The position numbers and the translations under genes were made by a program. The notes under the pieces are model-generated. The model did no database searches, was not told the DNA's origin, and saw nothing but the letters and a program-made list of their open reading frames with translations. A DNA stretch of 64,000 nt from Candidatus Levyibacteriota bacterium (GTDB taxonomy: Bacteria; Patescibacteriota; Microgenomatia; Levybacterales; UBA12049): the NCBI GenBank assembly GCA_041906785.1, contig JAYRIM010000023.1, positions 129,985 to 193,984 of the forward strand, given 5' to 3'. Position 1 is the first letter of the stretch; every line of letters begins with the position of its first letter. Shown here piece after piece: positions 817 to 46,893 of the stretch.

Positions 817-887
817 CGGGATGTAGTATAGTGGTAGTACGCCGCGCTGGGGGTGCGGTAGTCCGCGTTCGATTCGCGGCATCCCGA
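817..887 (+). tRNA. tRNA-Pro, anticodon GGG, 71 nt, no encoded CCA
   Basis: A clean cloverleaf folds by hand. Acceptor cgggatg/catcccg (7 bp), D-arm gtat-agtggta-gtac, anticodon stem ccgcg/tgcgg with loop cTGGGgg, T-arm ccgcg-TTCGATT-cgcgg, discriminator A. The loop gives anticodon GGG; a GC-rich tRNA stands out in AT-rich DNA. Confidence 0.8.
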
Positions 888-1005
888 CTCTTCGACAAGC
901 TCAGAGTCTATCGACTCTCTAAAATTGCCAAATTATTATATATGCCACAAAAACTAACAGCTTGACGAAGAGAGCTGAGTTTATCGAAGCTCAATTTACT
1001 TTCTC

Positions 1006-1260
1006 ATGTACAAAGTTTATTTTTTAAAAAACTCTAAAGGTCATCTTTATGTAGGAACAACTCGTAATCTTGAAAAAAGACTTGAACGACACCACACTGG
1101 TGATGGTGCTGAATTTATAAAAAGAAATAAAGGGTTCAAATTAGTTTACTCTGAAACTTACAATACATTACTAGAAGCTCGAAGAAGAGAAAGACAAGTT
1201 AAGGGGTGGAGACGAGAGAAGAAAGAAAATTTAATAAAATTTGGAAAACCAATTCTATAA
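1006..1260 (+). CDS. small GIY-YIG family nuclease (YhbQ/UPF0213-like)
   Basis: 84 aa. It starts YKVYFLKNSKGHLYVGTTRNLEKRLERH with the GIY..YVG and R..E..H motifs and a K/R-rich tail. It lies just downstream of a tRNA. Confidence 0.75.
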   Translation: MYKVYFLKNSKGHLYVGTTRNLEKRLERHHTGDGAEFIKRNKGFKLVYSETYNTLLEARRRERQVKGWRREKKENLIKFGKPIL

Positions 1261-1282
1261 TTTTCATTGACTCGTTATCTCT

Positions 1283-1319
1283 AAACCGCGTACTATATAT
1301 ACATATATGCGGTTTTTTT
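1283..1319 (+). terminator. possible intrinsic terminator after the GIY-YIG gene
   Basis: aaaccgc ...(AT loop)... gcggttt stem followed by a T7 run. It overlaps the annotated start of the next ORF, so the call is uncertain. Confidence 0.3.
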
Positions 1320-2251
1320 ATGTGCCAGAAGTAAAACGATATGTTCTCATAGGAGCTATTATCGCTTTTATCGCCCCAATAATTTTACGATTTTTTATTT
1401 CGTCATGGAATTACCAGGAATTACTGCTGCATCATACGATTCGTCAAAAACTCGGATTTCCAAGTATGGAGTATGCAGGTCCAGCCAGTGTCATGATTAC
1501 GATGTTTTTTCAAATATTTTATGCTTGTGCAGGGGGCGCTTTGGGAATGCTTTATTTTAAAATACGATATAGACATGAAGGTTTTACACTGCTGACTACT
1601 CAAGCGCTTCGCACTGTAACAGGAGTATTTATCTGTACGTTTCTGTATTTTTTCCTCTATGCCGATATGTTCAATATGATCTATCCATATATCGACAACG
1701 CTGCGATTAGACCAATCGCAACATTAGCGAGTTTTGCGTTTCGTACGCCGAGATTTAATGATGATATGTTTCGCTTAGTTCCCTCAACTCCACCTGAATA
1801 TCGACAGCCAAACCCATATGTCCCGCCACCACAAACAAATCCTCCGTCCGTAGGCAATCCTCAACCGCAGCCAGAACCAGAACGCATGGCAACACCTGGT
1901 GAGATAGTTGCTGCGATTAATAACTATCGAGCAAAGAATGGTCGACCTGCACTAGGAGTTGATGATTTTTTGATGGGTTATGCTCAGGAACGATCGAATT
2001 ATTTCACTTCGATAGGTAAAATAGACAATCATGAACAGTTCTTTAAAGATATTCATGAAAGCAGGTTTAGTAGTTATTACTCTCTCGGAGAAAACTCAAG
2101 TTATACAGGCGCGATGTCAGCAGAAAGGTTAGTCGAAGAGGTATTTAAAAATAGTGCTGGCCATGATGAAAATCAGCTGAGTACCCAATGGACACACGTC
2201 GGAGTGGGAGTAAATGGGTATTATATAGATGTGGTGTACGGAAGAAAATAA
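1307..2251 (+). CDS. membrane-anchored CAP/SCP (YkwD-like) domain protein with a Pro-rich linker
   Basis: 314 aa with N-terminal hydrophobic helices and a P-rich linker (PPEYRQPNPYVPPPQTNPPSVGNPQPQPEPE). The C-terminal CAP domain reads GEIVAAINNYRAKNGRPAL...YSLGEN...AGHDENQLSTQWTHVGVG. The true start may be downstream. Confidence 0.6.
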   Translation: MRFFYVPEVKRYVLIGAIIAFIAPIILRFFISSWNYQELLLHHTIRQKLGFPSMEYAGPASVMITMFFQIFYACAGGALGMLYFKIRYRHEGFTLLTTQALRTVTGVFICTFLYFFLYADMFNMIYPYIDNAAIRPIATLASFAFRTPRFNDDMFRLVPSTPPEYRQPNPYVPPPQTNPPSVGNPQPQPEPERMATPGEIVAAINNYRAKNGRPALGVDDFLMGYAQERSNYFTSIGKIDNHEQFFKDIHESRFSSYYSLGENSSYTGAMSAERLVEEVFKNSAGHDENQLSTQWTHVGVGVNGYYIDVVYGRK

Positions 2252-2504
2252 TAAATTACAAGTTTCAAAGTTACAGAGATGCAAAGTCACAAAGTGTAAT
2301 GTCTCATCTTCAACTTTTTGATTTACGCAAGACAGAGGAACTCTGCGAATAATCATTTTTGCGAAAACAACCTATAAGAGCGCTTCACGAAATGAAAATT
2401 TAAACCAGAGCATTTCTGCTGGAAAAGTGGGTGTCGGCAACGCTGCCGACACCCTCGCGATATTCGATTGGAGCCGGGCAGAACTGCCCGGCCTGGCAGC
2501 TTTA

Positions 2505-2675
2505 TCAGCTGCCTGACTCGGACGAGCCGCCTTGGCCCTCGCCACCTTCGGTCTTCTCGCCCTTCTTGCGCCGCGTGCGCTTGGGCTTCGTCTCGGTCGC
2601 CTCTGGCCCGGGGGCAGCCTCTTCAGGCGTGCTTGCGGCTCGAGCCACGGGGGGCTCACCACCAGTCTGTGCCAT
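2505..2675 (-). CDS. 56-aa basic, disordered small ORF inside the GC-rich island (origin uncertain)
   Basis: Manual translation gives MAQTGGEPPVARAASTPEEAAPGPEATETKPKRTRRKKGEKTEGGEGQGGSSESGS*. An AAAGGAGA ribosome-binding site lies 6 nt upstream of the ATG. G is enriched at codon position 1 and GC3 is about 73%. It is below the 60-aa cut-off of the ORF track. Confidence 0.35.
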   Translation of the reverse strand: MAQTGGEPPVARAASTPEEAAPGPEATETKPKRTRRKKGEKTEGGEGQGGSSESGS

Positions 2676-2988
2676 CGGACTCTCCTTTCAATCTACACGG
2701 ACTTGGACGTAATGCCCAACTGCTACGGGGTAACCGCAGTAGGCCAAAAGGCCTACACCGCCTATCCCCGCTAGGCATTGTACAAGTTCGATGTATTCAA
2801 ACACATACAATACCCAGCGAAAGATAGGTATTTTCCTTATTCCATATAGAAAAATCTCTGTCTTGCGTTTTTAATGTACAAAGTTCATGTTTCCAAACAA
2901 GAGATACAATCTGTATCAAAGTCTCAGAAACACAAAGTTTTTTATATCACAAAAAAGCGTTGAAATCAACACTATGAGACTAAATTCC

Positions 2989-3276
2989 CTATTCAAGGGG
3001 TATTGTATCTATAAGAGGTAAATAGATACGGACTTCGTCCCAAAACTTCTCAGAAAGATTGGTAGCGAACTTCCCATATCCACTATTTTCAGATTTTGAA
3101 CAGAGTTCATTATCATATCGACGTATGATTCGAAGAATTTTTCTACCGTTTTCATTGAAATCATCTCTTACAGATTCATCACCCGAAGCAACTTTATCGT
3201 GTAATACTTTAAACTCAGTAAAAAAATCATGGTAATCATTTACCATTGTTGTAAAATGTTTTTTATATTTAGTCAT
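2989..3276 (-). CDS. hypothetical protein
   Basis: 95-aa ORF in typical AT-rich coding context; no recognisable domain. Confidence 0.45.
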   Translation of the reverse strand: MTKYKKHFTTMVNDYHDFFTEFKVLHDKVASGDESVRDDFNENGRKILRIIRRYDNELCSKSENSGYGKFATNLSEKFWDEVRIYLPLIDTIPLE

Positions 3277-3311: not shown

Positions 3312-3581
3312 GTGTACAATAAATATATGTTTAAACAACCATGGTTTCGTTTACATAAATGGAAAACTGGTTGGGTACCTATTACATGGCAGGGATGGAT
3401 ACTGACTCTCTTATTTATCGGTCTCATCATATACAACTTTTTCCGCATAGATGAAACTTCTCACTCAGTATCTGATACGTTAATTAACTTTATTCCGCAA
3501 ACAGTAGTATTCGCTGGATTATTTAGCGTTTTTTGCTATTTTAAATCGGAACGACCTTCTGGAGAAGAAATGTTAAAATAA
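3312..3581 (+). CDS. small hypothetical membrane protein
   Basis: 89 aa with two hydrophobic helices (ILTLLFIGLIIYNFF and VVFAGLFSVFCYF). Confidence 0.45.
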   Translation: MYNKYMFKQPWFRLHKWKTGWVPITWQGWILTLLFIGLIIYNFFRIDETSHSVSDTLINFIPQTVVFAGLFSVFCYFKSERPSGEEMLK

Positions 3582-3614
3582 AAGAGTCAAAGCTGCAAAG
3601 AGTCAGAGAGTCAA
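3582..3614. repeat. left arm of an imperfect 33-nt inverted repeat flanking the four-helix-bundle gene
   Basis: aagagtcaaagctgcaaagagtcagagagtcaa matches the reverse complement of 3983-4016 at the ends (agagtcaaag ... agagagtcaa). Confidence 0.6.
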
Positions 3615-3617
3615 TTT

Positions 3618-3986
3618 ATGATAGAAAATCATAAAGGATATCATAAACTTATTATTTGGCAAAAAGGTAAACAGTTTATGAAAGTTTTATATTTATTGAC
3701 AGAGAATTATCCTAAACATGAGATTTTCGGACTACAATCTCAAATTAGAAGAGCTGTTGTGTCGTTCCTTCTTAATATCGTTGAAGGTCATAAAAGAAAA
3801 TCTACGAAAGAATTCCTACAATTTCTCAATATTGCAGAGGCATCACTTGTAGAAGTTGAAGCATGTTTAGAGATATCATTCGAATTAAGTTATATAACTG
3901 AGAGGGAGTATAGTCAGCTTGAAGAACAAAGACGCGAACTCGCCAGAATTATGCGAAGTTTTGTTAAAAGTCTTAATAAGCGTTGA
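3618..3986 (+). CDS. four-helix-bundle protein (23S rRNA intervening-sequence protein family, TIGR02436/PF05635-like)
   Basis: 122 aa. The sequence LIIWQKGKQFMKVLYLLTENYPKHEIFGLQSQIRRAVVSFLLNIVEGHKRKSTKEFLQFLNIAEASLVEVEACLEIS fits the family pattern closely. Confidence 0.75.
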   Translation: MIENHKGYHKLIIWQKGKQFMKVLYLLTENYPKHEIFGLQSQIRRAVVSFLLNIVEGHKRKSTKEFLQFLNIAEASLVEVEACLEISFELSYITEREYSQLEEQRRELARIMRSFVKSLNKR

Positions 3987-4016
3987 CTCTCTGCTACTCT
4001 GACTCTTTGACTCTCT
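3983..4016. repeat. right arm of the inverted repeat flanking the four-helix-bundle gene
   Basis: ttgactctctgctactctgactctttgactctc; its reverse complement gagagtcaaagagtcagagtagcagagagtcaa pairs with 3582-3614. Confidence 0.6.
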
Positions 4017-4017
4017 T

Positions 4018-4677
4018 ATGTATATTGTTACATTCTTGATTGAATTATTAGTACTATTTCTTTTATCTAAGCAAGTTACACAACACATTTCTTCACTCCT
4101 ACACAAATTAACGAAAAATAGAAAAGTTACAGTCTATTTAATTGCTTTTTTCTTCCTACCAGGCACTTTTATTCATGAACTTGCTCATTTTCTCATGGCG
4201 AAAATACTTTTCGTTCCTGTAGGGTCATTTTCTCTCAAACCTGAAGCAATTGGTCATGATATTCGCCTAGGAAAAGTTATGATCGCAAAGACAGATTTTT
4301 TCAGACGTCTTCTTATCGGCGCTGCGCCTTTTATCTTAGGTGTCTACCTAATTCTTTTTATCGTTTCAATCATCCAACAAAATCAGCTGTGGAATAACAT
4401 GTATATACTTCTTATATGCGGCGCTCTTATTTTCCAAATCGGCAACACAATGTTTTCAAGTAAAAAAGATATGAAAGGTGCTATCGAACTTATCTGTATT
4501 GTTTTGTTTCTTCTACTTTTTCTCTATCTCATGGGATTCCGTATAGCTGTTACTGACCAAACAATGGACTTTCTAAACTCTATTTTCCAAAAAGCATCTA
4601 TTTTTCTTCTACCGCCCGTTATCATAGATATTTTTCTTCTTGGGCTTTTTAAGGTTTTAGTTAAACCGACAAATTAA
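4018..4677 (+). CDS. polytopic membrane protein with an HExxH motif (putative intramembrane zinc metalloprotease-like)
   Basis: 219 aa with at least 5 hydrophobic helices. HELAH lies within a predicted helix (PGTFIHELAHFLMAKILFVP). The family assignment is tentative. Confidence 0.5.
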   Translation: MYIVTFLIELLVLFLLSKQVTQHISSLLHKLTKNRKVTVYLIAFFFLPGTFIHELAHFLMAKILFVPVGSFSLKPEAIGHDIRLGKVMIAKTDFFRRLLIGAAPFILGVYLILFIVSIIQQNQLWNNMYILLICGALIFQIGNTMFSSKKDMKGAIELICIVLFLLLFLYLMGFRIAVTDQTMDFLNSIFQKASIFLLPPVIIDIFLLGLFKVLVKPTN

Positions 4678-8102: not shown

Positions 8103-9929
8103 TTAGGTTGACAAAACCAATTTTAAATATGTATTTCCTAATACGTATAACTCACTTATGGCACGTGTTAATGCAACATATACGAGATCCCTATCAACCT
8201 TTTTTCTTTCTTCTTGCAAGTTTTCAGGCAACCCCTCCAGATTAAACGATTTCTTATGCATACCAACAAGAAAAACTACATCGAATTCCACTCCCTGTGC
8301 CTCATTAATTGTGAGAACATGAATATTTTTATAGGCTGATAATTGCCTTTTAAATTGTTGTAGATATTCTTCTGATTTTGCCAAAACTCCGATAACCTCA
8401 TCCTTTTTATTTTCAATAACAGAAATGATTTTTTTAATCTCAGACTGTTTATTATCAACGATACATTCTTCAACAGCCCTTCCTTCCTTTACTTGATCCG
8501 GTATAGTGACAGGATAGCCTAAGGATTGAATATATGAAAGAATTTGTTTCGTATTACGATATACTTTTTGGAGTACAACTTTACGGTCAGTTTCAAATGT
8601 TTCATATACTTCTTCCCAATTTGAAATAGTGAAAGGTAATGTTCGCTGAATAAGGTCACCGACATATATAAGACCATTCGTCTGAGAATTAATAGAAGAT
8701 TTAATAAGAGAAATCTGTTCTGAGAGATAATTTTCTGCCTCATCGAGCACAATTAAAGAATATATAACTGGTTGTAGCATAATTTTCTTTACGTACTTAC
8801 CATTCATCAGCTTCACATATTTTTCAACTATTTGATGTAATCGACCTTTTTCCAACATGGAAAGCCTAAGCAATACTGTAAGATCAAATCGATCTAAGAC
8901 ATTCCTCTGTTTTTGATTAGCTAACAACACTAATTGTTCTTCTGAAAAATAATCTTTATAAGTTTCATGCAGTACTTTATAGATATCTTTCCCAAGTTTC
9001 ATAGTTTTTAGATTCTTCAATGCTTGATTTTTAGCGTATTCATATATATCTTTTTTGTGTTCGCTAGTTCCATATCGCAAAACGAATCGCGTATTGGGTA
9101 ACCCTAAAATATCTCGAGCCCATTCATGAAAAGTAGTAATAGTGACTTTATGAATACCAAGTTGGGGTAAAAGTGAGCTAAAGTATTGTTTGGTTATACT
9201 ATCATGTACGAAAACAATAATGTCCTTTGCTGGAAATAATTCAGCTGTATCGGGCGATTGTATGAGAAAAGCAGCTCTGTGAAGTGCAAGTGTTGTTTTA
9301 CCAGAACCTGCAGGACCAGAAATGAGAAATGATCCAAAATAGTGAGAACGGATTATTGTATCCTGGGCTTTTTCCATTTGCTCAACAATTTCTTTAAGCA
9401 TGAATTGATTTTTCTTTTCTGAAAAATATTCTTGATAAATAAGTTCTCGCGGATACCTATCAGATTCTGTCGACATAAAAAGAATTTTTCCATCAACTAT
9501 CAAAAATTGATCTTTCCTTATTAACCATCCACTCCTTTTCTCACCGCTTGGCGTTTCATATAAAAACCTTCCAGGAGAATTGAATCGAATAACTGCCGCA
9601 GGAGCAATCCAAGAATAGGTTGATTCAGCTATGTATGGAAAACGGCCAAAATAGAGTGTCTTCTGCTCAGTTTCATCGTCAAATTTGACATCACAACGAA
9701 CGAAATAAGGAGAAGCATGTTGCTGATCCATGTTTCGCTGAGTGTCTAAGTGAAGATAAAGCAATACTTCTTTCGTATCTCGTTCCTCACCTCGGGCATG
9801 AATTAGCTCTTTACGTAGTTGCATAATCGAAGTATCAATTCTCTTCTTCGTAGAGAGTATTCGGTCAGAAACTTTTAAAACATGCATTTTTGCCTCTTTA
9901 AGCTGAGTATTCTTCTGTATCTCATCCAT
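8103..9929 (-). CDS. SF1 UvrD-like DNA helicase, HelD/helicase-IV-like
   Basis: 608 aa. N-terminal coiled-coil/HelD-like region, Walker A (SGPAGSGKTTLALHRAAF), DEAE-box-like LDEAENY, and C-terminal motif VI (VYVALTRAISELYVLG). Confidence 0.75.
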   Translation of the reverse strand: MDEIQKNTQLKEAKMHVLKVSDRILSTKKRIDTSIMQLRKELIHARGEERDTKEVLLYLHLDTQRNMDQQHASPYFVRCDVKFDDETEQKTLYFGRFPYIAESTYSWIAPAAVIRFNSPGRFLYETPSGEKRSGWLIRKDQFLIVDGKILFMSTESDRYPRELIYQEYFSEKKNQFMLKEIVEQMEKAQDTIIRSHYFGSFLISGPAGSGKTTLALHRAAFLIQSPDTAELFPAKDIIVFVHDSITKQYFSSLLPQLGIHKVTITTFHEWARDILGLPNTRFVLRYGTSEHKKDIYEYAKNQALKNLKTMKLGKDIYKVLHETYKDYFSEEQLVLLANQKQRNVLDRFDLTVLLRLSMLEKGRLHQIVEKYVKLMNGKYVKKIMLQPVIYSLIVLDEAENYLSEQISLIKSSINSQTNGLIYVGDLIQRTLPFTISNWEEVYETFETDRKVVLQKVYRNTKQILSYIQSLGYPVTIPDQVKEGRAVEECIVDNKQSEIKKIISVIENKKDEVIGVLAKSEEYLQQFKRQLSAYKNIHVLTINEAQGVEFDVVFLVGMHKKSFNLEGLPENLQEERKKVDRDLVYVALTRAISELYVLGNTYLKLVLST

Positions 9930-21760: not shown

Positions 21761-22204
21761 TTATACTGTCGTTTCGATAGTTCCGCCTGCTTTTTTAATT
21801 TTATCAGCAGCAGATTGTGAAACTGGAATTCTTATAGTGTATGCAGCTGTTACTTCACCATGACCTAATAGTTTAACTCCTCTGGTACGAGCTTCGTCTG
21901 AAACAATGCGTTGTTTAATCAAAACCTCTATATCAACAACACCTTTTGCAGATAAACGAGCCAAATCATCTAAATTAATGACCACAGGTTTTTGCTGAAG
22001 GGATTTATTACGATCTTTACCTCTAAGAAAAGGCATACGTTTTACGAGAGGAAGCGCTCCTCCTTCAAAGCGGAGAGGAATATCATTTCGTGCTTTTTGA
22101 CCCTTTGTACCCCTTCCTGCGGTCTTTCCACGGCCTGAACCATGGCCTAACCCAAGACGTTTCTTTCTTTGAGATACTACTGATGGTAAAAAATGTAATT
22201 CCAT
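21761..22204 (-). CDS. rplO: 50S ribosomal protein L15
   Basis: 147 aa; G-rich N-terminus (GHGSGRGKTAGRGTKGQKAR). Confidence 0.9.
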   Translation of the reverse strand: MELHFLPSVVSQRKKRLGLGHGSGRGKTAGRGTKGQKARNDIPLRFEGGALPLVKRMPFLRGKDRNKSLQQKPVVINLDDLARLSAKGVVDIEVLIKQRIVSDEARTRGVKLLGHGEVTAAYTIRIPVSQSAADKIKKAGGTIETTV

Positions 22205-22719
22205 TATTTATTTTTCTCCTTTTTCGTATTTCTCATGCGCTCATACCGCTGTGAAACCTGACGAAGAGCTTCGATTGTAGCATAAACATTATTGGCTTGA
22301 TTTTTTGTACCGAGAACTTTACTTGAAATATTTTGAATACCTGCCGCCGCGACAACACTTCGTACTGCACCGCCGGCAATAATTCCTGAACCTGGAGGTG
22401 CTGGTTTCAACATCACTTTTGCCGCACCTACTTTCACATCTACTCGTAATGGGATGGTTCCGTTAATAATAGGGACATAGAGCATATGTTTCCTAGCTAA
22501 CGTGATACCTTTTCGGATTGCAGATGAAACATCCATCGCTTTCCCCAATCCGATTCCTACTCTTCCATTTTTATCTCCTACAACAGCTAAAGCTGCAAAT
22601 CCCATTTTATTTCCACCTTTCGTCTTTTTAGAAACACGATTAATATTCACAACCTGTTCAGAAAAACCTGATTGGATATCTGTTTCTTTTTGCATAAGTT
22701 TACTATCTCGATTATTCAT
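22204..22719 (-). CDS. rpsE: 30S ribosomal protein S5
   Basis: 171 aa. Its stop overlaps the rplO start (TAATG), leaving no room for rpmD. Confidence 0.9.
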   Translation of the reverse strand: MNNRDSKLMQKETDIQSGFSEQVVNINRVSKKTKGGNKMGFAALAVVGDKNGRVGIGLGKAMDVSSAIRKGITLARKHMLYVPIINGTIPLRVDVKVGAAKVMLKPAPPGSGIIAGGAVRSVVAAAGIQNISSKVLGTKNQANNVYATIEALRQVSQRYERMRNTKKEKNK

Positions 22720-34291: not shown

Positions 34292-35266
34292 TTATCTAAC
34301 AACTGGTTCATCGATTGTAAATTTTAAGTTTATCGCATCCATAGTTGCTATAGCACCAATCGGAAGCAAAATGTTTTCGACTCGGTGACCAATCTCTCCA
34401 ACTTGCATGATTGGAAAATCATAGCCTTCTGTAACTTCAAGCAACATATCTTTCAAAGATCTCTCATCTCCGGGCTGTGTTGGATCGTCGCTTCCTAAAC
34501 AATATCCTACAATAATACCCGAAAGTCTCTTAAACTCTCCTCGTAATCTCATACTTATTAATCTATGATGTATTGCTTTTTTATGCATTCTATATCCTTC
34601 AAATACGAAAATATTTTGATCCAATGATGGATAATAATCTGTTCCAGATAGATAGGTAATACTACCTAAATTTCCCCCGATAATCCTTCCCTTAGCAGTT
34701 CCTGGTCTAATAGTTTGCCAACCATTATATGTTGTGGGCAAATCATCATAATTTTTCCATTTGGGATTTAAGGTAACTTCTTTCAAAGTTCCTTCAAACC
34801 ATGTTTTCTCTATCTGTTCATACGTATAATCCATAGGCAACCACCCGAACATAGTAAATTCAAGTCCTAGGAATGTTATCAAACCAGTTTTAACAAAGAT
34901 AGGGTTAAGAATAGTAGTGGCGTCTGAAATACCAGAAATTATTTTCGGATTTTTTCTTATAAGCTCATAATCTAGCTTATCGATTAAGTCAATCGCTGTG
35001 TTGCCTCCGACTGAAAAAAGTATACCTTTTATTGAAGGATCTTTAAGAAATTGATGGAAATCAGATAGTCTCTCTTGAACAGTTCCTGAGGAATAGTAAT
35101 ATCTTCCTAATGTATGAGAACCAAGAATTAACTCAAGGCCAGTTCTCTGGGAAAAAGAGGTTTTAGCTTTTTCAAATTTTTCCATCCGATTTTGTATAGA
35201 TTGAGAAGGGGAGATAATACCGACTTTATCGCCTTTTTTTAACCTCGGTGGGATGATAGTTTGCAT
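34292..35266 (-). CDS. S66 family LD-carboxypeptidase (LdcA/MccF-like)
   Basis: Ser nucleophile motif ISGISDATT and C-terminal His motif GEIGHRVENILLPIG. Confidence 0.65.
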   Translation of the reverse strand: MQTIIPPRLKKGDKVGIISPSQSIQNRMEKFEKAKTSFSQRTGLELILGSHTLGRYYYSSGTVQERLSDFHQFLKDPSIKGILFSVGGNTAIDLIDKLDYELIRKNPKIISGISDATTILNPIFVKTGLITFLGLEFTMFGWLPMDYTYEQIEKTWFEGTLKEVTLNPKWKNYDDLPTTYNGWQTIRPGTAKGRIIGGNLGSITYLSGTDYYPSLDQNIFVFEGYRMHKKAIHHRLISMRLRGEFKRLSGIIVGYCLGSDDPTQPGDERSLKDMLLEVTEGYDFPIMQVGEIGHRVENILLPIGAIATMDAINLKFTIDEPVVR

Positions 35267-35846: not shown

Positions 35847-36914
35847 TCAGAAGTATGAATATGCCCAATAGCTGAAATTGTTTATGCCTCTTTTTTTTAG
35901 ATAATCACGCTTTGTAGAAACAGACTCTGTATCCTCAAACCATACTCTATGCTTCGTTCCGCTTTCGATATAATCAATTCTAGTCTCTTTTGATAAAGGA
36001 TCCCTATATATATTACATGAGAGTTTCTTACAGAAAGCGATAATTGTTGTCTGAATTTCATTAAAGCTAAGTGGTTTGCCAATTTTTTGAGAAATATTCT
36101 TTCCATCCACTTCCCAATCATAACCAAATAACCCAAAGACAATGGTAATATTTTCTGCACGAACATCCTCTAAAAGTTTATCGATTAGTAATGAATAATC
36201 ATATCCATATTCTTTATTACCAGAAAGAGGAAAATTCGGTCCGGGATTTCCACCTGCCTTATGTAGGTCATATGCCATAATAAAAATTTGATCGACATAT
36301 TTCCCTAATGTTTGTAATTCAAATGGTCGAACTCGATAATAGGTATCGCCATAGAGTGTCATCGAAAAAGAAATTTTTTCTTTTTTCGAAGCTGCTGAAA
36401 AATCTTTAGTAAAAGAATTTATCTGTTTAATAAGTGACTCAAATGGAAGTGCCGAGAGTTCAAGATCGAGAATAACCCCTTCAAAATTATATTCTTTCAC
36501 TACCTGTAATACTTCTGAAATAATGGTTGCTTGTTTTTTATGATCTTTTAAAATTTTGAAATTATCTTGGGAATCAAGCATGCGTACAGTTAGGTATGTT
36601 TGCTTTCCACTAAATGCATTTTTAAACTGTTCGAGTCGGAGATACCCTGCATCTTTTTTATTAATATGTTCTACCGTTGGGGTTATACCAAAGTAAATAT
36701 ACGTATCATACATAGATATATCTGTAACATCTTTAGGGATATTCCAATAGGGTATAAAGATAGATGTTTGTTCTTTTATATCAATATGTTCTAATGTAAC
36801 AGTTGGTTGAACATTACCTTTATTCCATTGCTGCTTTTTTTCAGTTAAAAAAGTATTTCGCATTAAGAAAGCAAAGACGATCAATAAAAATGAGAAGACA
36901 ATTGCTTTTCTCAT
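35847..36914 (-). CDS. GH18-like (chitinase/YaaH-like) domain protein with a signal anchor
   Basis: Motifs FEGVILDLE (a degenerate DGxDxDWE) and IMAYDLHK (GH18 MxYD). Confidence 0.45.
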   Translation of the reverse strand: MRKAIVFSFLLIVFAFLMRNTFLTEKKQQWNKGNVQPTVTLEHIDIKEQTSIFIPYWNIPKDVTDISMYDTYIYFGITPTVEHINKKDAGYLRLEQFKNAFSGKQTYLTVRMLDSQDNFKILKDHKKQATIISEVLQVVKEYNFEGVILDLELSALPFESLIKQINSFTKDFSAASKKEKISFSMTLYGDTYYRVRPFELQTLGKYVDQIFIMAYDLHKAGGNPGPNFPLSGNKEYGYDYSLLIDKLLEDVRAENITIVFGLFGYDWEVDGKNISQKIGKPLSFNEIQTTIIAFCKKLSCNIYRDPLSKETRIDYIESGTKHRVWFEDTESVSTKRDYLKKRGINNFSYWAYSYF

Positions 36915-37548: not shown

Positions 37549-38202
37549 CTATTTTTTAACTACGTAAAAGTGTTCTGTTTTCGGTAGCTTTTCAAGCTTA
37601 CGAATAACACGGTCGGCATCATGTTTTTGGGATATATGCTCTCGCATACAAGCAAGTTTTTTCTCCCACACACAAGATACATCATATGTTTCATCAATCT
37701 CGCCCTCTGTATATCCTGCAGGGAAATAAATAAAATAGGGTTCCTCCAAAGCTCTGCTTTCTGCTGTAAGACAATAATACATAATTTTCTTTAAGAACGG
37801 TAACTGCTCGAAAACGTATGAACAAATCATTGAAACTGCAATATGATCAAGATGCCCAGAGATACCTCTATGTTCAAAAGTTACTAGTGTCTGAGGCTTA
37901 ATCTTTATCAATATCTGACTAATCTTTTCTGCAATATCATGATAAAGATTATTTGATAATGTCCCGTCTTTATAGCCTAAGAAAAGTACATCTTTTACAC
38001 CAAGCTGTCGAGCTGAACTCATTAATTCCTTTTTCCTTATCTCAGAAAGGAGATGCTTTTCTTCAGGACTACATTTACCTGCGCTTCCATCAGTTACACA
38101 AATAAGATACACATCGTGTTTCTCTGCCAATAACGCTATAGTCCCACTCGGACCAAATGCTTCATCATCAGGATGTGCAAAAATACATACTATCGGTTTC
38201 AT
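37549..38202 (-). CDS. PIG-L/LmbE family N-acetylglucosaminyl deacetylase
   Basis: N-terminus IFAHPDDEAFGPSGTIA (the AHPDDE motif). Confidence 0.75.
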   Translation of the reverse strand: MKPIVCIFAHPDDEAFGPSGTIALLAEKHDVYLICVTDGSAGKCSPEEKHLLSEIRKKELMSSARQLGVKDVLFLGYKDGTLSNNLYHDIAEKISQILIKIKPQTLVTFEHRGISGHLDHIAVSMICSYVFEQLPFLKKIMYYCLTAESRALEEPYFIYFPAGYTEGEIDETYDVSCVWEKKLACMREHISQKHDADRVIRKLEKLPKTEHFYVVKK

Positions 38203-45482: not shown

Positions 45483-45594
45483 TAAATAGTTGCACAGATG
45501 CATAGTCAGGACACCGGACGGTACTTGACATAGTTTCAGAGGTCAATAAATACACTTTTCTCTTATTACTCTGCAACTTTGGATCTTTGTAACT

Positions 45595-46893
45595 TTGAAA
45601 CTTACTACAATGAACATAGGTATTATAGGTGCAGGATTCACAGGTCTTTCTGCAGGATATACACTTACAAAACAAGGCCATATAGTTACTATTTTTGAAA
45701 AAGATCCACAACCAGGCGGATTAGCCATAGGGTATAAAGAAAAAGAGTGGGAATGGTCACTTGAAAAACACTATCACCACTGGTTTACGAATGACAAATT
45801 TATTCTTAATTTAGCAAAGGAAATTAATCATACAGTCTATATTAAAAGACCTCATACAAACTGGTATGTAAATGGTAATATTTATGAGTTCGACTCAATA
45901 CCAGCGGCCTTAAGATTTCCTCCTCTGCCTTTTATTGATAGGATAAGAAATTTAGCAACACTTGGATTACTTCGTTTTAATCCTTTCTGGCAACCACTTG
46001 AAAAATATAATGCACACAAAGTACTTCCATTTTTCATGGGGGGAAAAGCATATAAAATGCTGTGGGAACCATTGTTTATAAATAAATTTGGTAGCTATGC
46101 TACTGATGTCTCACTAGCTTGGTTTTGGGCCAGAATTGCTAAGCGAACACAATCTCTTGCTTATCCAGAAGGAGGTTTTTTAGCCTTTGCCAATCATCTC
46201 GTAACAGGTATAGAAAAAAATGGTGGAAGGGTACAGTTCAATACCGAACTAATTGAATTACTTCAAAATAAAAAGACTACAGTAAAAATAAAAAACATAT
46301 CAGGGAATATAGCTACTGTTTCATTTGATAAAGTGATTGTAACCTTGCCTTCTTTTCTGTTTCTTAAAACAACTCCCCAACTTCCTGATGCATATAAGAA
46401 TTCTCTTGCGAAATTAAAAGGTTTGGGTGCGACAAATCTTATCCTTCGATTAAAACAACCTTTTTTTGCAGATAATACATACTGGTTAAGTGTCGCTGAT
46501 ACTACTTCACCGGTAATGGCAATTGTCGAGCATACAAATTTTATGGATAAAACATTTTATAATAATGAACACTTGCTCTATCTCGGCAACTATGTTCCTC
46601 AAGACCACTCGTATTTCTCTATGACTGAGCAACAAATGCTTGATCATTTCGACAAATTCTTAAAAAGAATAAATCCAACCTATAAAAAAACAATTATAGG
46701 TATGAAATTGTTTAAGGCTCCTTTTGCTCAACCTGTTATTCCTGAGAACTATTCAAAAATGCTTCCTCCAATGAAAACACCGTTATCTCAAGTATTCCTT
46801 GCAAATATAGAACAGGTATACCCATGGGATAGAGGAACAAATTATGCCGTAGAACTAGGACAAAAAGTTGCTCATCTTATTACTAAAACCTGA
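45595..46893 (+). CDS. FAD-dependent oxidoreductase (amine oxidase/HemY/CrtI-like Rossmann)
   Basis: N-terminal dinucleotide-binding motif IGIIGAGFTGLSAGYTL...IFEKDPQPGG. Confidence 0.65.
   Translation: MKLTTMNIGIIGAGFTGLSAGYTLTKQGHIVTIFEKDPQPGGLAIGYKEKEWEWSLEKHYHHWFTNDKFILNLAKEINHTVYIKRPHTNWYVNGNIYEFDSIPAALRFPPLPFIDRIRNLATLGLLRFNPFWQPLEKYNAHKVLPFFMGGKAYKMLWEPLFINKFGSYATDVSLAWFWARIAKRTQSLAYPEGGFLAFANHLVTGIEKNGGRVQFNTELIELLQNKKTTVKIKNISGNIATVSFDKVIVTLPSFLFLKTTPQLPDAYKNSLAKLKGLGATNLILRLKQPFFADNTYWLSVADTTSPVMAIVEHTNFMDKTFYNNEHLLYLGNYVPQDHSYFSMTEQQMLDHFDKFLKRINPTYKKTIIGMKLFKAPFAQPVIPENYSKMLPPMKTPLSQVFLANIEQVYPWDRGTNYAVELGQKVAHLITKT

Follow-up and report, generated by a model that had tools for sequence, protein, structure and literature searches.

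The closest described counterparts of the locus examined here are the ORFan or acquired genomic islets and the cassette modules. With the former, the G+C-rich island shares an atypical composition and codon usage, restriction to one lineage, lack of homologues and a location in a variable region that follows a tRNA gene; with the latter, namely the pdif/Xer modules, the invertons and the integrons, the slot that holds the island shares a short conserved inverted repeat bracketing one small gene, with a cargo that varies. A further term of comparison is offered by intrinsic terminators, a style with hairpins that lack a U tail or stand in tandem beyond the stop codon being commoner as genomic G+C rises (PMC3013805). 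The window (the whole stretch of 64 000 nucleotides that was analysed) derives from a lineage that looks CPR-like (Candidate Phyla Radiation), with low G+C, mostly leaderless genes and no gene for ribosomal protein L30.

A previous sequence-only reading of the island had put forward three candidate explanations, a horizontally acquired mini-gene, a structured non-coding RNA and an assembly chimera or contaminant. The first of the three fits best by taking into account, in its favour, the foreign interior within a shared scaffold, the GC3 value and the Shine-Dalgarno (SD) sequence and, against it, that no donor or homologue was found and that codon periodicity is not significant. At a probability of approximately 0.5, we favour a recent foreign replacement in a conserved small-gene slot, carrying an SD-led mini-gene. 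The body of the resident small gene is replaced here by approximately 300 bp of DNA of foreign composition (2473-2780), which would have been acquired recently by horizontal transfer or cassette swapping, and the segment may have arrived with, or been joined to, a duplicated native upstream region bearing the -10-like TGTACAAT. Transcription of the minus strand would then lead to an RNA of approximately 350 nt, made up of a 95-nt leader hairpin, the SD, the 56-codon ORF, two U-less hairpins and the slot's own terminator. The features of the locus are, in order of position:

2325-2337, plus strand: left arm of a 13-nt inverted repeat, ACGCAAGACAGAG, downstream of the CAP stop codon and conserved in L001, L004 and L005
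2338-2428, no strand assigned: conserved non-coding spacer with the motifs TTTT(A/T)GCGAA and CAGAGC..TTCTCTG, which aligns among the window, L001, L004 and L005
2421-2454, minus strand: native intrinsic terminator, an 11-bp stem (2429-2454) followed by ACUUUUCC, the hairpin being found in all four species
2473-2780, minus strand: G+C-rich segment, the putative replacement cargo, specific to this genome (G+C 0.6-0.77 in 30-nt windows)
2473-2492, minus strand: perfect palindrome with 9-bp arms, GCCGGGCAG-aa-CTGCCCGGC, a 3' hairpin without a U tail that is absent from L001 and L004
2495-2513, minus strand: perfect palindrome with 7-bp arms, seen in the sequence, with the stop codon (2505-2507) inside
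2505-2675, minus strand: 56-codon ORF with an ATG start, MAQTGGEPPVARAASTPEEAAPGPEATETKPKRTRRKKGEKTEGGEGQGGSSESGS, its translation being that quoted in the sequence-only reading
2680-2688, minus strand: SD, AAAGGAGAG, seen in the sequence, with 6 nt from its GGAG core to the ATG
2700-2795, minus strand: long imperfect 5'-leader hairpin predicted by minimum free energy and centroid folds, with an apical perfect 7-bp stem at 2739-2756
2779-2811, no strand assigned: duplicate (33 nt) of native upstream sequence adjoining the right edge of the island, in direct repeat with 2875-2910
2856-2868, plus strand: right arm of the 13-nt inverted repeat, CTCTGTCTTGCGT, perfectly complementary to 2325-2337
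2875-2910, no strand assigned: native copy of the duplicated upstream sequence, which holds TGTACATT (minus strand, 2873-2880) and is partly common to L001 and L004

The G+C content measured in 200-nt stretches peaks at 0.70 at the island, against a mean of 0.357 (sd 0.050) for the 64-kb window, where any other 200-nt stretch reaches at most 0.525, so that the description of a GC-rich island in a low-GC genome is confirmed. Its borders fall at approximately 2421 and 2780 in 30-nt G+C windows, and no second copy is found within the 64 kb. Every feature that had been described is present in the sequence where it had been placed. The four long overlapping ORFs across the island had been regarded as artefacts of the G+C content, and indeed none of the four has a Pfam match or an entry in the protein collection; exact look-ups of the window proteins and of five island ORFs retrieved from that collection the CAP protein and a 95-aa neighbour only.

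The island lies in a slot that is shared with related genomes. Only four species were found, with CAP proteins that are 63-70% identical and roughly equidistant, none being closer than approximately 66%, and the syntenic loci, L001-L006, hold the repeat arms, the spacer and the terminator hairpin. In the four species, the left repeat arm comes after the CAP-domain gene, then approximately 100 nt of conserved spacer and a minus-strand terminator hairpin, and in the three species whose contig extends there the right arm lies upstream of a small minus-strand gene that ends at this terminator, in L001 and L004 approximately 20-30 nt upstream of its ribosome-binding site. The two arms are the only copies of the 13-nt repeat in the 64 kb when up to 2 mismatches are allowed; L001 carries G at position 8 of each arm, the one A-to-G change seen so far, and AATCTCTG(T/C)CTTGCGTT at the right arm is kept in the window, L001 and L004. 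Conservation of the spacer (2338-2428) exceeds that of the ORF interiors. Across species the terminator stem has undergone compensatory changes (U-A to G-C; G-C to A-U or U-A), and because it is kept through them the hairpin at 2429-2454 is considered native. The equivalent hairpins of L001 and L004 are called as terminators, while the window copy, with 4 U only, falls below the scan threshold. The proposal that 2425-2780 is compositionally foreign does not extend to the left-most hairpin, which is native to the locus and conserved there as its terminator. Wider searches added little: the right arm AACGCAAGRCAGAGATTYT gave 37 matches in metagenomes, all attributable to chance and none with the second arm or homology to the window, searches with the CAP sequence by itself or with a CAP alignment returned the L001 contig again and nothing further, and the more distant CAP homologues P0005 and P0006 lie in a different gene context.

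What the slot contains differs among the four species, in which three unrelated types of cargo are found, two of them G+C-rich. The positional counterparts of the window ORF are coding in the relatives, with 74 aa in L001, 70 aa in L004 and at least 153 aa in L005. Those of L001 and L004, on the minus strand and preceded by a ribosome-binding site and an ATG, encode acidic proteins that share 34-42% identity (z = 10.6 for the DNA), to be compared with 70% for the corresponding CAP proteins, and their G+C (0.49-0.54) and GC3 (0.36-0.38) are raised relative to the neighbouring genes; a profile built on them recovered only the L001 and L004 members themselves. The L005 slot holds a G+C-rich minus-strand ORF with a weak, sub-threshold match to Tad_C and PHROG matches that come mostly from its acidic tail, and with no plasmid or PDB match. 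The window interior aligns with those of L001, L004 and L005 at z < 1, that is with no homology, and with respect to the relatives its leader is longer by approximately 165 nt and it has one more hairpin. It had been suggested that conservation of the same island at the same locus would mark a genuine element: the locus and a small minus-strand gene are conserved in the relatives, the island sequence is not. The absence of the island from the orthologous site is seen in relatives that have approximately 66% CAP identity at the nearest.

The 56-aa minus-strand ORF (2505-2675) with an SD (AAAGGAGAG, 2680-2688) 6 nt from its ATG is as previously reported, and so are the enrichment of G at codon position 1 (0.47, the highest among the three positions) and the high GC3 (0.72). 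Its codon usage was likewise rightly described as atypical for the window, where the native genes have a mean GC3 of 0.248 (sd 0.031, maximum 0.314), approximately 15 sd away. The GC1/2/3 values of 0.68/0.68/0.72 are, however, nearly equal, unlike those of a typical gene of a high-G+C organism, and the periodicity of bases by codon position is not significant (chi-square p = 0.12), whereas the same test yields p = 3e-6, 1e-6 and 7e-23 for the slot ORFs of L001, L004 and L005, respectively. The evidence for coding is therefore limited to the SD and the ATG. Of dinucleotide shuffles of the island, 0.36% contain AAGGAG ahead of an ATG ORF of 50 codons or more, and 1.3% have AGGAG in that place; among the native genes, only 7 of 52 have an SD. 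No homologue of the peptide was found among 5.8 billion clustered proteins (word-indexed search), among 1.84 billion cluster representatives (exhaustive HMMER, E up to 1e-3) or, by tblastn, in a phage collection, and no family in Pfam, PHROG, NCBIfam and PADLOC. The word gene stands here for what we infer, because neither donor nor homologue was found and codon periodicity is not significant. With one Val, one Met and no Leu, Ile, Phe, Trp or Tyr, and a predicted structure devoid of secondary structure (pTM 0.15), the peptide, if translated, would probably be disordered and rich in Gly, Glu, Pro, Ala and Thr, with a KPKRTRRKKGEK patch, and it would be no substitute for the acidic 70-74 aa protein of the relatives. 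An ORF of a type I toxin-antitoxin system was also considered and discarded, the peptide being neither hydrophobic nor membrane-spanning, with no helix predicted.

At the right edge of the island the direct repeat formed by 2779-2811 and 2875-2910 (approximately 80% identity; z = 4.5, not reached in any of 1000 shuffles) is not found on both island sides. The duplicate contains the extended -10-like TGTACAAT at 2777-2784 on the minus strand, the -10-like box that had been noted upstream of the ORF. The same TGTACAAT is found 6 nt before the ATG of a leaderless 84-aa gene (3313-3329), and it may serve as a promoter. A CAAAG-type direct repeat (2262-2306/2905-2949) was rejected as a target duplication (z approximately 1.8; it belongs to an octamer-repeat family present elsewhere in the window), and what looks by eye like a remnant of the ancestral ribosome-binding site and start codon (2812-2855) is statistically unsupported and is retained as no more than speculation. 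This region, downstream of a tRNA-Pro that is conserved and lies 1.5 kb upstream of the island, is a hot-spot for lineage-specific insertions: a GIY-YIG gene and an Avd-like cassette are found here and UbiA in L001. No integrase, transposase or reverse transcriptase was detected among the scanned window ORFs. A diversity-generating retroelement, considered for the Avd-like gene 1 kb away, was dismissed, with no reverse transcriptase in the scanned ORFs and no repeat partner of the island in the window. The search for a donor covered phage and plasmid collections, patterns in viral contigs and protein collections and named none; the island DNA gave, in the phage and plasmid collections, only a chance-level match of 44 nt to a Rhizobium phage (E = 3e-3), and four island patterns gave no match in viral contigs.

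Perfect palindromes number 7, against 0.18 expected from dinucleotide shuffles, a count that none of 2000 shuffles reaches. The four perfect GC palindromes previously noted are all found (2429-2454, 2473-2492, 2495-2513 and 2739-2756), with the stop codon (2505-2507) inside the third as claimed; only the extent of the left-most one needs correction, from 2431-2452 to 2429-2454 with 11-bp arms. Folding of the whole 401-nt region is stronger than that of shuffles (z = -4.9; for the other strand z = -6.0). A known structured RNA, one of the suggestions made, is not supported: over the whole window the sole Rfam match at the gathering score is a tRNA-Pro (817-887), also the only tRNA called in the window by ARAGORN (817-888), which finds no tRNA or tmRNA in the island. 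On 2200-3000, at E up to 10, Rfam yields only noise, the best sub-threshold match being nhaA-II (20.3 bits, gathering score 70.4), together with a 31-nt U6atac fragment that overlaps the SD, and on the relatives' loci only tRNA.

RNA genes in A+T-rich genomes show a sharp rise in G+C similar to that seen just downstream of the -10-like TGTACAAT. Along with folding far stronger than in shuffles on both strands, the excess of perfect palindromes, and an ORF with neither significant codon periodicity nor homologues, this rise is what would be expected if the island were a structured non-coding or dual-function RNA, with functional hairpins and an incidental ORF. We nevertheless consider such an RNA unlikely: no Rfam family emerges even at E up to 10, the slot ORFs of the relatives are clearly coding (ribosome-binding site, ATG, strong periodicity), chance is unlikely to place a strong SD at the right distance from an open frame of 56 codons, 70% G+C is well above what a native RNA gene needs (the tRNA-Pro stretch has approximately 0.42-0.47), and there are no homologous sequences that could show covariation. 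The lack of codon periodicity and of an assignable function, and an orphan, low-complexity peptide that is predicted to be unstructured, also fit with foreign DNA captured during repair or recombination and left unexpressed and unselected as non-functional filler, with the SD and ORF inherited from the donor. Such filler overlaps the foreign replacement favoured here and differs from it only on function; it is improbable in that no decay is visible in the palindromes, which are perfect, or in the ORF and SD, which are intact, and the segment is probably transcribed because it lies between the promoter-like duplicate and the conserved terminator. An artefact of assembly, or a contaminant from a high-G+C organism in the sample, as the sequence-only reading had allowed, might explain the extreme composition, a length of approximately 300 bp that is near that of a read or insert, and the absence from every relative. 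It would, however, require two precise junctions inside a conserved scaffold of 400 bp, at the very place where the body of the native small ORF is missing; the diverged duplicate at the junction (approximately 80% identity) is not what an assembler would create, the left end is continuous with native sequence and the native terminator, and among 15 billion proteins there is no matching protein of a high-G+C organism. With the exact placement in the slot, the use of the native terminator and the native upstream duplicate adjoining the island, a chimera or contaminant is disfavoured and, in our estimate, very unlikely.

It is also conceivable, with a small probability, that no DNA was imported and that the ORF diverged in place, being either an orthologue of the acidic protein that evolved beyond recognition or an ORF that arose de novo within a decayed gene. 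In the former case the palindromes would have expanded, and the G+C content risen, locally, through a process such as template switching or biased gene conversion where the site is prone to recombination. Strand, position, terminator and small size match those of the relatives, the family evolves very fast (34-42% identity between L001 and L004 against 70% for CAP), the small ORFs of the relatives are also G+C-raised (0.49-0.54; GC3 0.36-0.38), and the ORF ends in ...GGC AGC TGA, to be compared with ...GAC AGC TGA in L004. Such divergence would have to account for a change of GC3 from approximately 0.37 to 0.72 with sharp borders and for approximately 165 nt of extra leader and a hairpin without counterpart in the relatives, and we know of no mutational process that would raise 300 bp to 70% G+C within a genome of 36% G+C. 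Furthermore, since the CAP proteins are roughly equidistant, simple divergence should leave a signal like that between L001 and L004, but the similarity remains at z < 1 although the distance of the window from L001 and L004 is about the same as that between these two.

If correct, the foreign replacement would represent a small and clean case of foreign DNA taking the place of a resident gene inside a conserved regulatory scaffold, in the setting of a reduced, mostly leaderless, CPR-like genome. It would also help to trace recent gene flow into organisms of this kind, with high-G+C neighbours or hosts as possible sources, and provide a candidate for the discovery of orphan small proteins. The slot, with a conserved bracket and terminator and a fast-changing cargo, is of wider interest than the island itself. 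The bracket, formed by the 13-nt repeat, the spacer and the terminator, might be a dedicated site of cassette exchange or capture for unrelated small genes, including G+C-rich DNA from high-G+C organisms, for example a host, a proposal that we regard as distinctly doubtful; the arms would then be recombination sites or, as in the Avd-like cassette, the closing stem of an RNA. With four genomes to compare, the changing cargo is equally compatible with the ordinary turnover of a fast-evolving orphan gene.

Compared with the known systems, the island departs from acquired islets in its length of only approximately 300 bp, with no mobility gene found and no clear target-site duplication, and in that it replaces a small gene within a promoter/terminator scaffold rather than being inserted between genes. 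A MITE or REP element was considered as well and rejected, there being no further copy of either the island or the repeat in the 64 kb and no consistent duplication adjoining the arms. With respect to cassette modules, the limits of the cargo lie approximately 135 nt (left) and up to approximately 75 nt (right) inside the arms, which are 13 nt long, with neither the Xer-like 11-6-11 layout nor an attC core, and no recombinase was found in the 64 kb around the slot. An integron cassette was rejected, the scanned ORFs including no integrase and the arms, by inspection, no GTTRRRY core, while invertons, which are similar for their conserved inverted repeats, differ in that one orientation is found here in six of six assemblies. 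The Avd-like/23S_rRNA_IVP unit at 3578-4019, only 1 kb away in the same neighbourhood, is also a single small gene inside an inverted repeat, and the slot arms are predicted to pair if co-transcribed, as in that unit. The terminator inside the slot bracket, however, argues against routine co-transcription of both arms, the repeat sequence is another one, the slot arms are of 13 nt rather than 37 nt, and the slot lacks the four-helix-bundle protein. Finally, the two perfect, G+C-rich and U-less hairpins that directly follow or overlap the stop codon of the island ORF resemble the intrinsic terminators of high-G+C genomes (the I-shaped and tandem U-shaped classes of WebGeSTer; PMC3013805), but they are putative and are followed downstream by the host's own L-type terminator.

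The description of positions 2425-2780 given by the sequence-only reading is borne out as to G+C content, palindromes, open reading frame (ORF) and Shine-Dalgarno (SD) sequence. The 200-nt G+C maximum of the island is 0.70 versus a window mean of 0.357 (s.d. 0.050), all other stretches of the 64 kb being at or below 0.525 in the same 200-nt scan. Four distinct perfect palindromes are present, and the palindrome count of 7, versus 0.18 expected, was reached in 0/2000 dinucleotide shuffles; predicted folding is also far stronger than that of shuffles on both strands (z = -4.9 and -6.0). The relevant features are:

1307-2251, CAP-domain protein (PF00188)
2429-2454, perfect palindrome, 11-bp arms
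2473-2492, perfect palindrome, 9-bp arms
2495-2513, perfect palindrome, 7-bp arms, with the stop codon of the 56-residue ORF inside
2505-2675, minus strand, 56-residue ORF, its translation being the peptide originally quoted
2680-2688, minus strand, SD sequence AAAGGAGAG upstream of this ORF
2739-2756, perfect palindrome, 7-bp arms

The island is a real feature: unique, rich in hairpins and foreign in composition. No other copy was found within the window, and phage and plasmid collections gave no significant match. A known structured RNA, one of the candidates initially put forward, is not supported: Rfam gave no match at the gathering score (only noise up to E = 10), and ARAGORN made no prediction at the island.

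Database searches returned only four close relatives of the CAP protein, and the four species are roughly equidistant (CAP identity, 63-70%). The loci recovered are L001, L002, L003 and L006, from one species, L004 and L005. The metagenome-assembled genome of L001/L006 (NCBI CAZEJU010000003.1), which also encodes RNase Y, carries a doubtful-looking 'uncultured Gammaproteobacteria' label; the L005 CAP gene is apparently frameshifted (277 aa + 40 aa, L005 561-1509), and P0009, a Logan sequence of the same protein cluster, has 315 aa. Synteny is kept in all recovered loci, from tRNA-Pro through the CAP gene, the small-gene slot and the homologue of the 95-aa gene onward. In 4/4 species, the CAP gene is followed on its 3' side by ACGCAAG(A/G)CAG(A/G)(A/G), an alignable spacer of approximately 100 nt and a G+C-rich hairpin (in the window, 2429-2454), which is a minus-strand terminator with pairing preserved through compensatory changes; the L001 and L004 hairpins score as terminators in a terminator scan. 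On the right side, AATCTCTG(T/C)CTTGCGTT is common to the window, L001 and L004, the L005 contig stopping short of it, and, since this is the left motif in reverse-complement form, the slot may be described as a putative small minus-strand transcription unit bracketed by a conserved 13-nt inverted repeat. The window contains only these two copies, and L001 shows an identical A-to-G change in both arms, a single concerted change. Pairing of the arms, if co-transcribed, is predicted with a probability of 0.85-0.99; any two complementary 13-nt stretches would be expected to behave in this way, and the result has no probative value. Since the 95-aa gene upstream ends at a terminator of its own (2956-2973), the slot forms an independent unit. 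It is decidedly improbable that the bracket, together with the terminator, serves as a site dedicated to cassette exchange in a lineage resembling the Candidate Phyla Radiation (CPR). Cargo variation has its limits inward of the arms rather than at them, slot orientation is identical in all assemblies, and the ORFs scanned across the 64 kb included no recombinase, integrase or reverse transcriptase.

Cargo of the slot by locus
L001, 74-aa acidic protein, G+C 0.49, GC3 0.36, codon periodicity p = 3e-6
L004, 70-aa acidic protein, G+C 0.54, GC3 0.38, codon periodicity p = 1e-6
L005, ORF of at least 153 aa with a long acidic tail, ended by the contig, G+C 0.56-0.59, GC3 0.64, codon periodicity p = 7e-23
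Window, 56-aa ORF in the island, G+C 0.70, GC3 0.72, codon periodicity not significant (p = 0.12)

Homology between the L001 and L004 proteins extends over their full length (34-42% identity; DNA z = 10.6), with the shared pattern MS(D/E)E.RR.ED ... P..AF(Y/F)..D ... DGDS*; no further members of their family were found. The L005 ORF (1807-2268) is unrelated to either; its tail comprises 45 Asp/Glu residues, and a Tad_C match is weak and sub-threshold (E = 0.0024). The interior of the window slot shows no relationship to any of the three (z below 1) and has a surplus of an approximately 165-nt leader and one more 3' hairpin. The island fills a conserved small-gene slot and employs the native terminator, with content non-homologous to that of its relatives. 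At the left edge, native sequence is back at approximately 2472, where the minus-strand sequence CCAATCGAATATCGCGAGG can be aligned to both L001 and L004. At the right edge, G+C-rich DNA stops at approximately 2780, abutting 2779-2811, a direct repeat (approx. 80% identical; z = 4.5; 0/1000 shuffles) of 2875-2910, the native sequence past the right repeat arm. Both copies carry TGTACA(A/T)T on the minus strand, and TGTACAAT recurs in front of a leaderless 84-aa gene (3327), 6 nt upstream of its ATG; we infer that this motif is a -10 element and that a promoter-like duplicate lies directly upstream of the island.

The window is chromosomal DNA and carries the S10-spc-alpha ribosomal operon, SecY, EF-Tu and EF-G. 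S5 is directly followed by L15, without an L30 gene between them (21761-22719), an order typical of the CPR; this order, the low G+C and the presence of DUF2298 and PMT_2 genes point to a CPR/Patescibacteria-like organism. Native genes have a GC3 of 0.248 ± 0.031 (maximum, 0.314), and only 7/52 have an SD, mainly within the ribosomal-protein operon. TATAAT-like boxes 5-8 nt upstream of the ATG of many genes suggest that leaderless mRNAs are widespread (examples of this pattern: upstream of 4717, 8103-9929, 11235, 34292-35266, 35847-36914, 37549-38202). By these measures, both the GC3 and the strong SD of the island ORF are foreign to the habits of the genome.

Further features were observed elsewhere in the window. 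The variable gap between the conserved tRNA-Pro and the CAP gene (window 817-1306; L001 4948-6000; L004 3516-3634; L005 379-560) is a small insertion hot-spot beside the tRNA: the window has a GIY-YIG nuclease gene of 84 aa there (1006-1260) and L001 a UbiA-family gene, and the gap is empty in L004 and L005. An Avd-like/23S_rRNA_IVP four-helix-bundle gene (3618-3986; PF05635, E = 7e-33), exactly flanked by the arms of a 37-nt inverted repeat (3578-3614/3983-4019), looks like an inserted mini-cassette (3578-4019), since it is missing at the syntenic position in L001. Arrays of the 8-nt unit CA(A/G)AGNNN (window 2266-2294, 2917-2929, 3588-3608, 3989-4009, 45529-45597; L005 1510-1591) are intergenic, clustered near small cassettes and at times inverted pairs; they are enriched (CAAAGNNNCAGAG, 13 matches with at most one mismatch versus 3.6 expected; 0/100 shuffles reach 13), and window 3582-3616 is 91% identical to L005 1559-1591 over 35 nt. 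A 608-aa UvrD-like helicase (8103-9929, minus strand), matched by PADLOC to RTasHel (DRT-associated helicase, E = 3e-20) and GajB (E = 3e-15), may be tied to anti-phage defence; no adjoining partner defence genes were recognized.

As to the origin of the island, an assembly chimera has a very slim chance, because it would need two junctions placed precisely within conserved scaffold sequence, because the body of the native ORF is absent from the same spot, and because a diverged duplicate of native sequence lies at the junction. That the segment diverged to an extreme degree at its own site, or that its ORF arose de novo, is unlikely. Among species so evenly spaced, divergence of the ordinary kind would be expected to leave an L001/L004-like signal; taken with the sharp compositional borders, the lack of one favours replacement over divergence at the site.

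In shuffles of the island, AAGGAG followed by an ATG ORF of 50 codons or more turns up in only 0.36%. Searches with the peptide gave no homologue in 5.8 billion clustered proteins or, by exhaustive HMMER search, in 1.84 billion representatives, and no family match in Pfam, PHROG, NCBIfam or PADLOC; its predicted structure is an unstructured coil (pTM 0.15, zero secondary structure). The weak point of the putative gene is that its basis is only SD, ATG and open frame. A structured or dual-function RNA, for which the folding would speak, is unlikely, and unexpressed filler DNA, with which the lack of codon periodicity would agree, is equally so. The island is a genuine mini-gene or islet, specific to its lineage and probably of foreign origin, that replaces a fast-evolving orphan small gene; that it arose by recent horizontal acquisition or cassette swap with a complete SD-led mini-gene is given a probability of about 0.5. 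Its tandem hairpins are U-less, a terminator style that becomes commoner as genomic G+C rises (PMC3013805).
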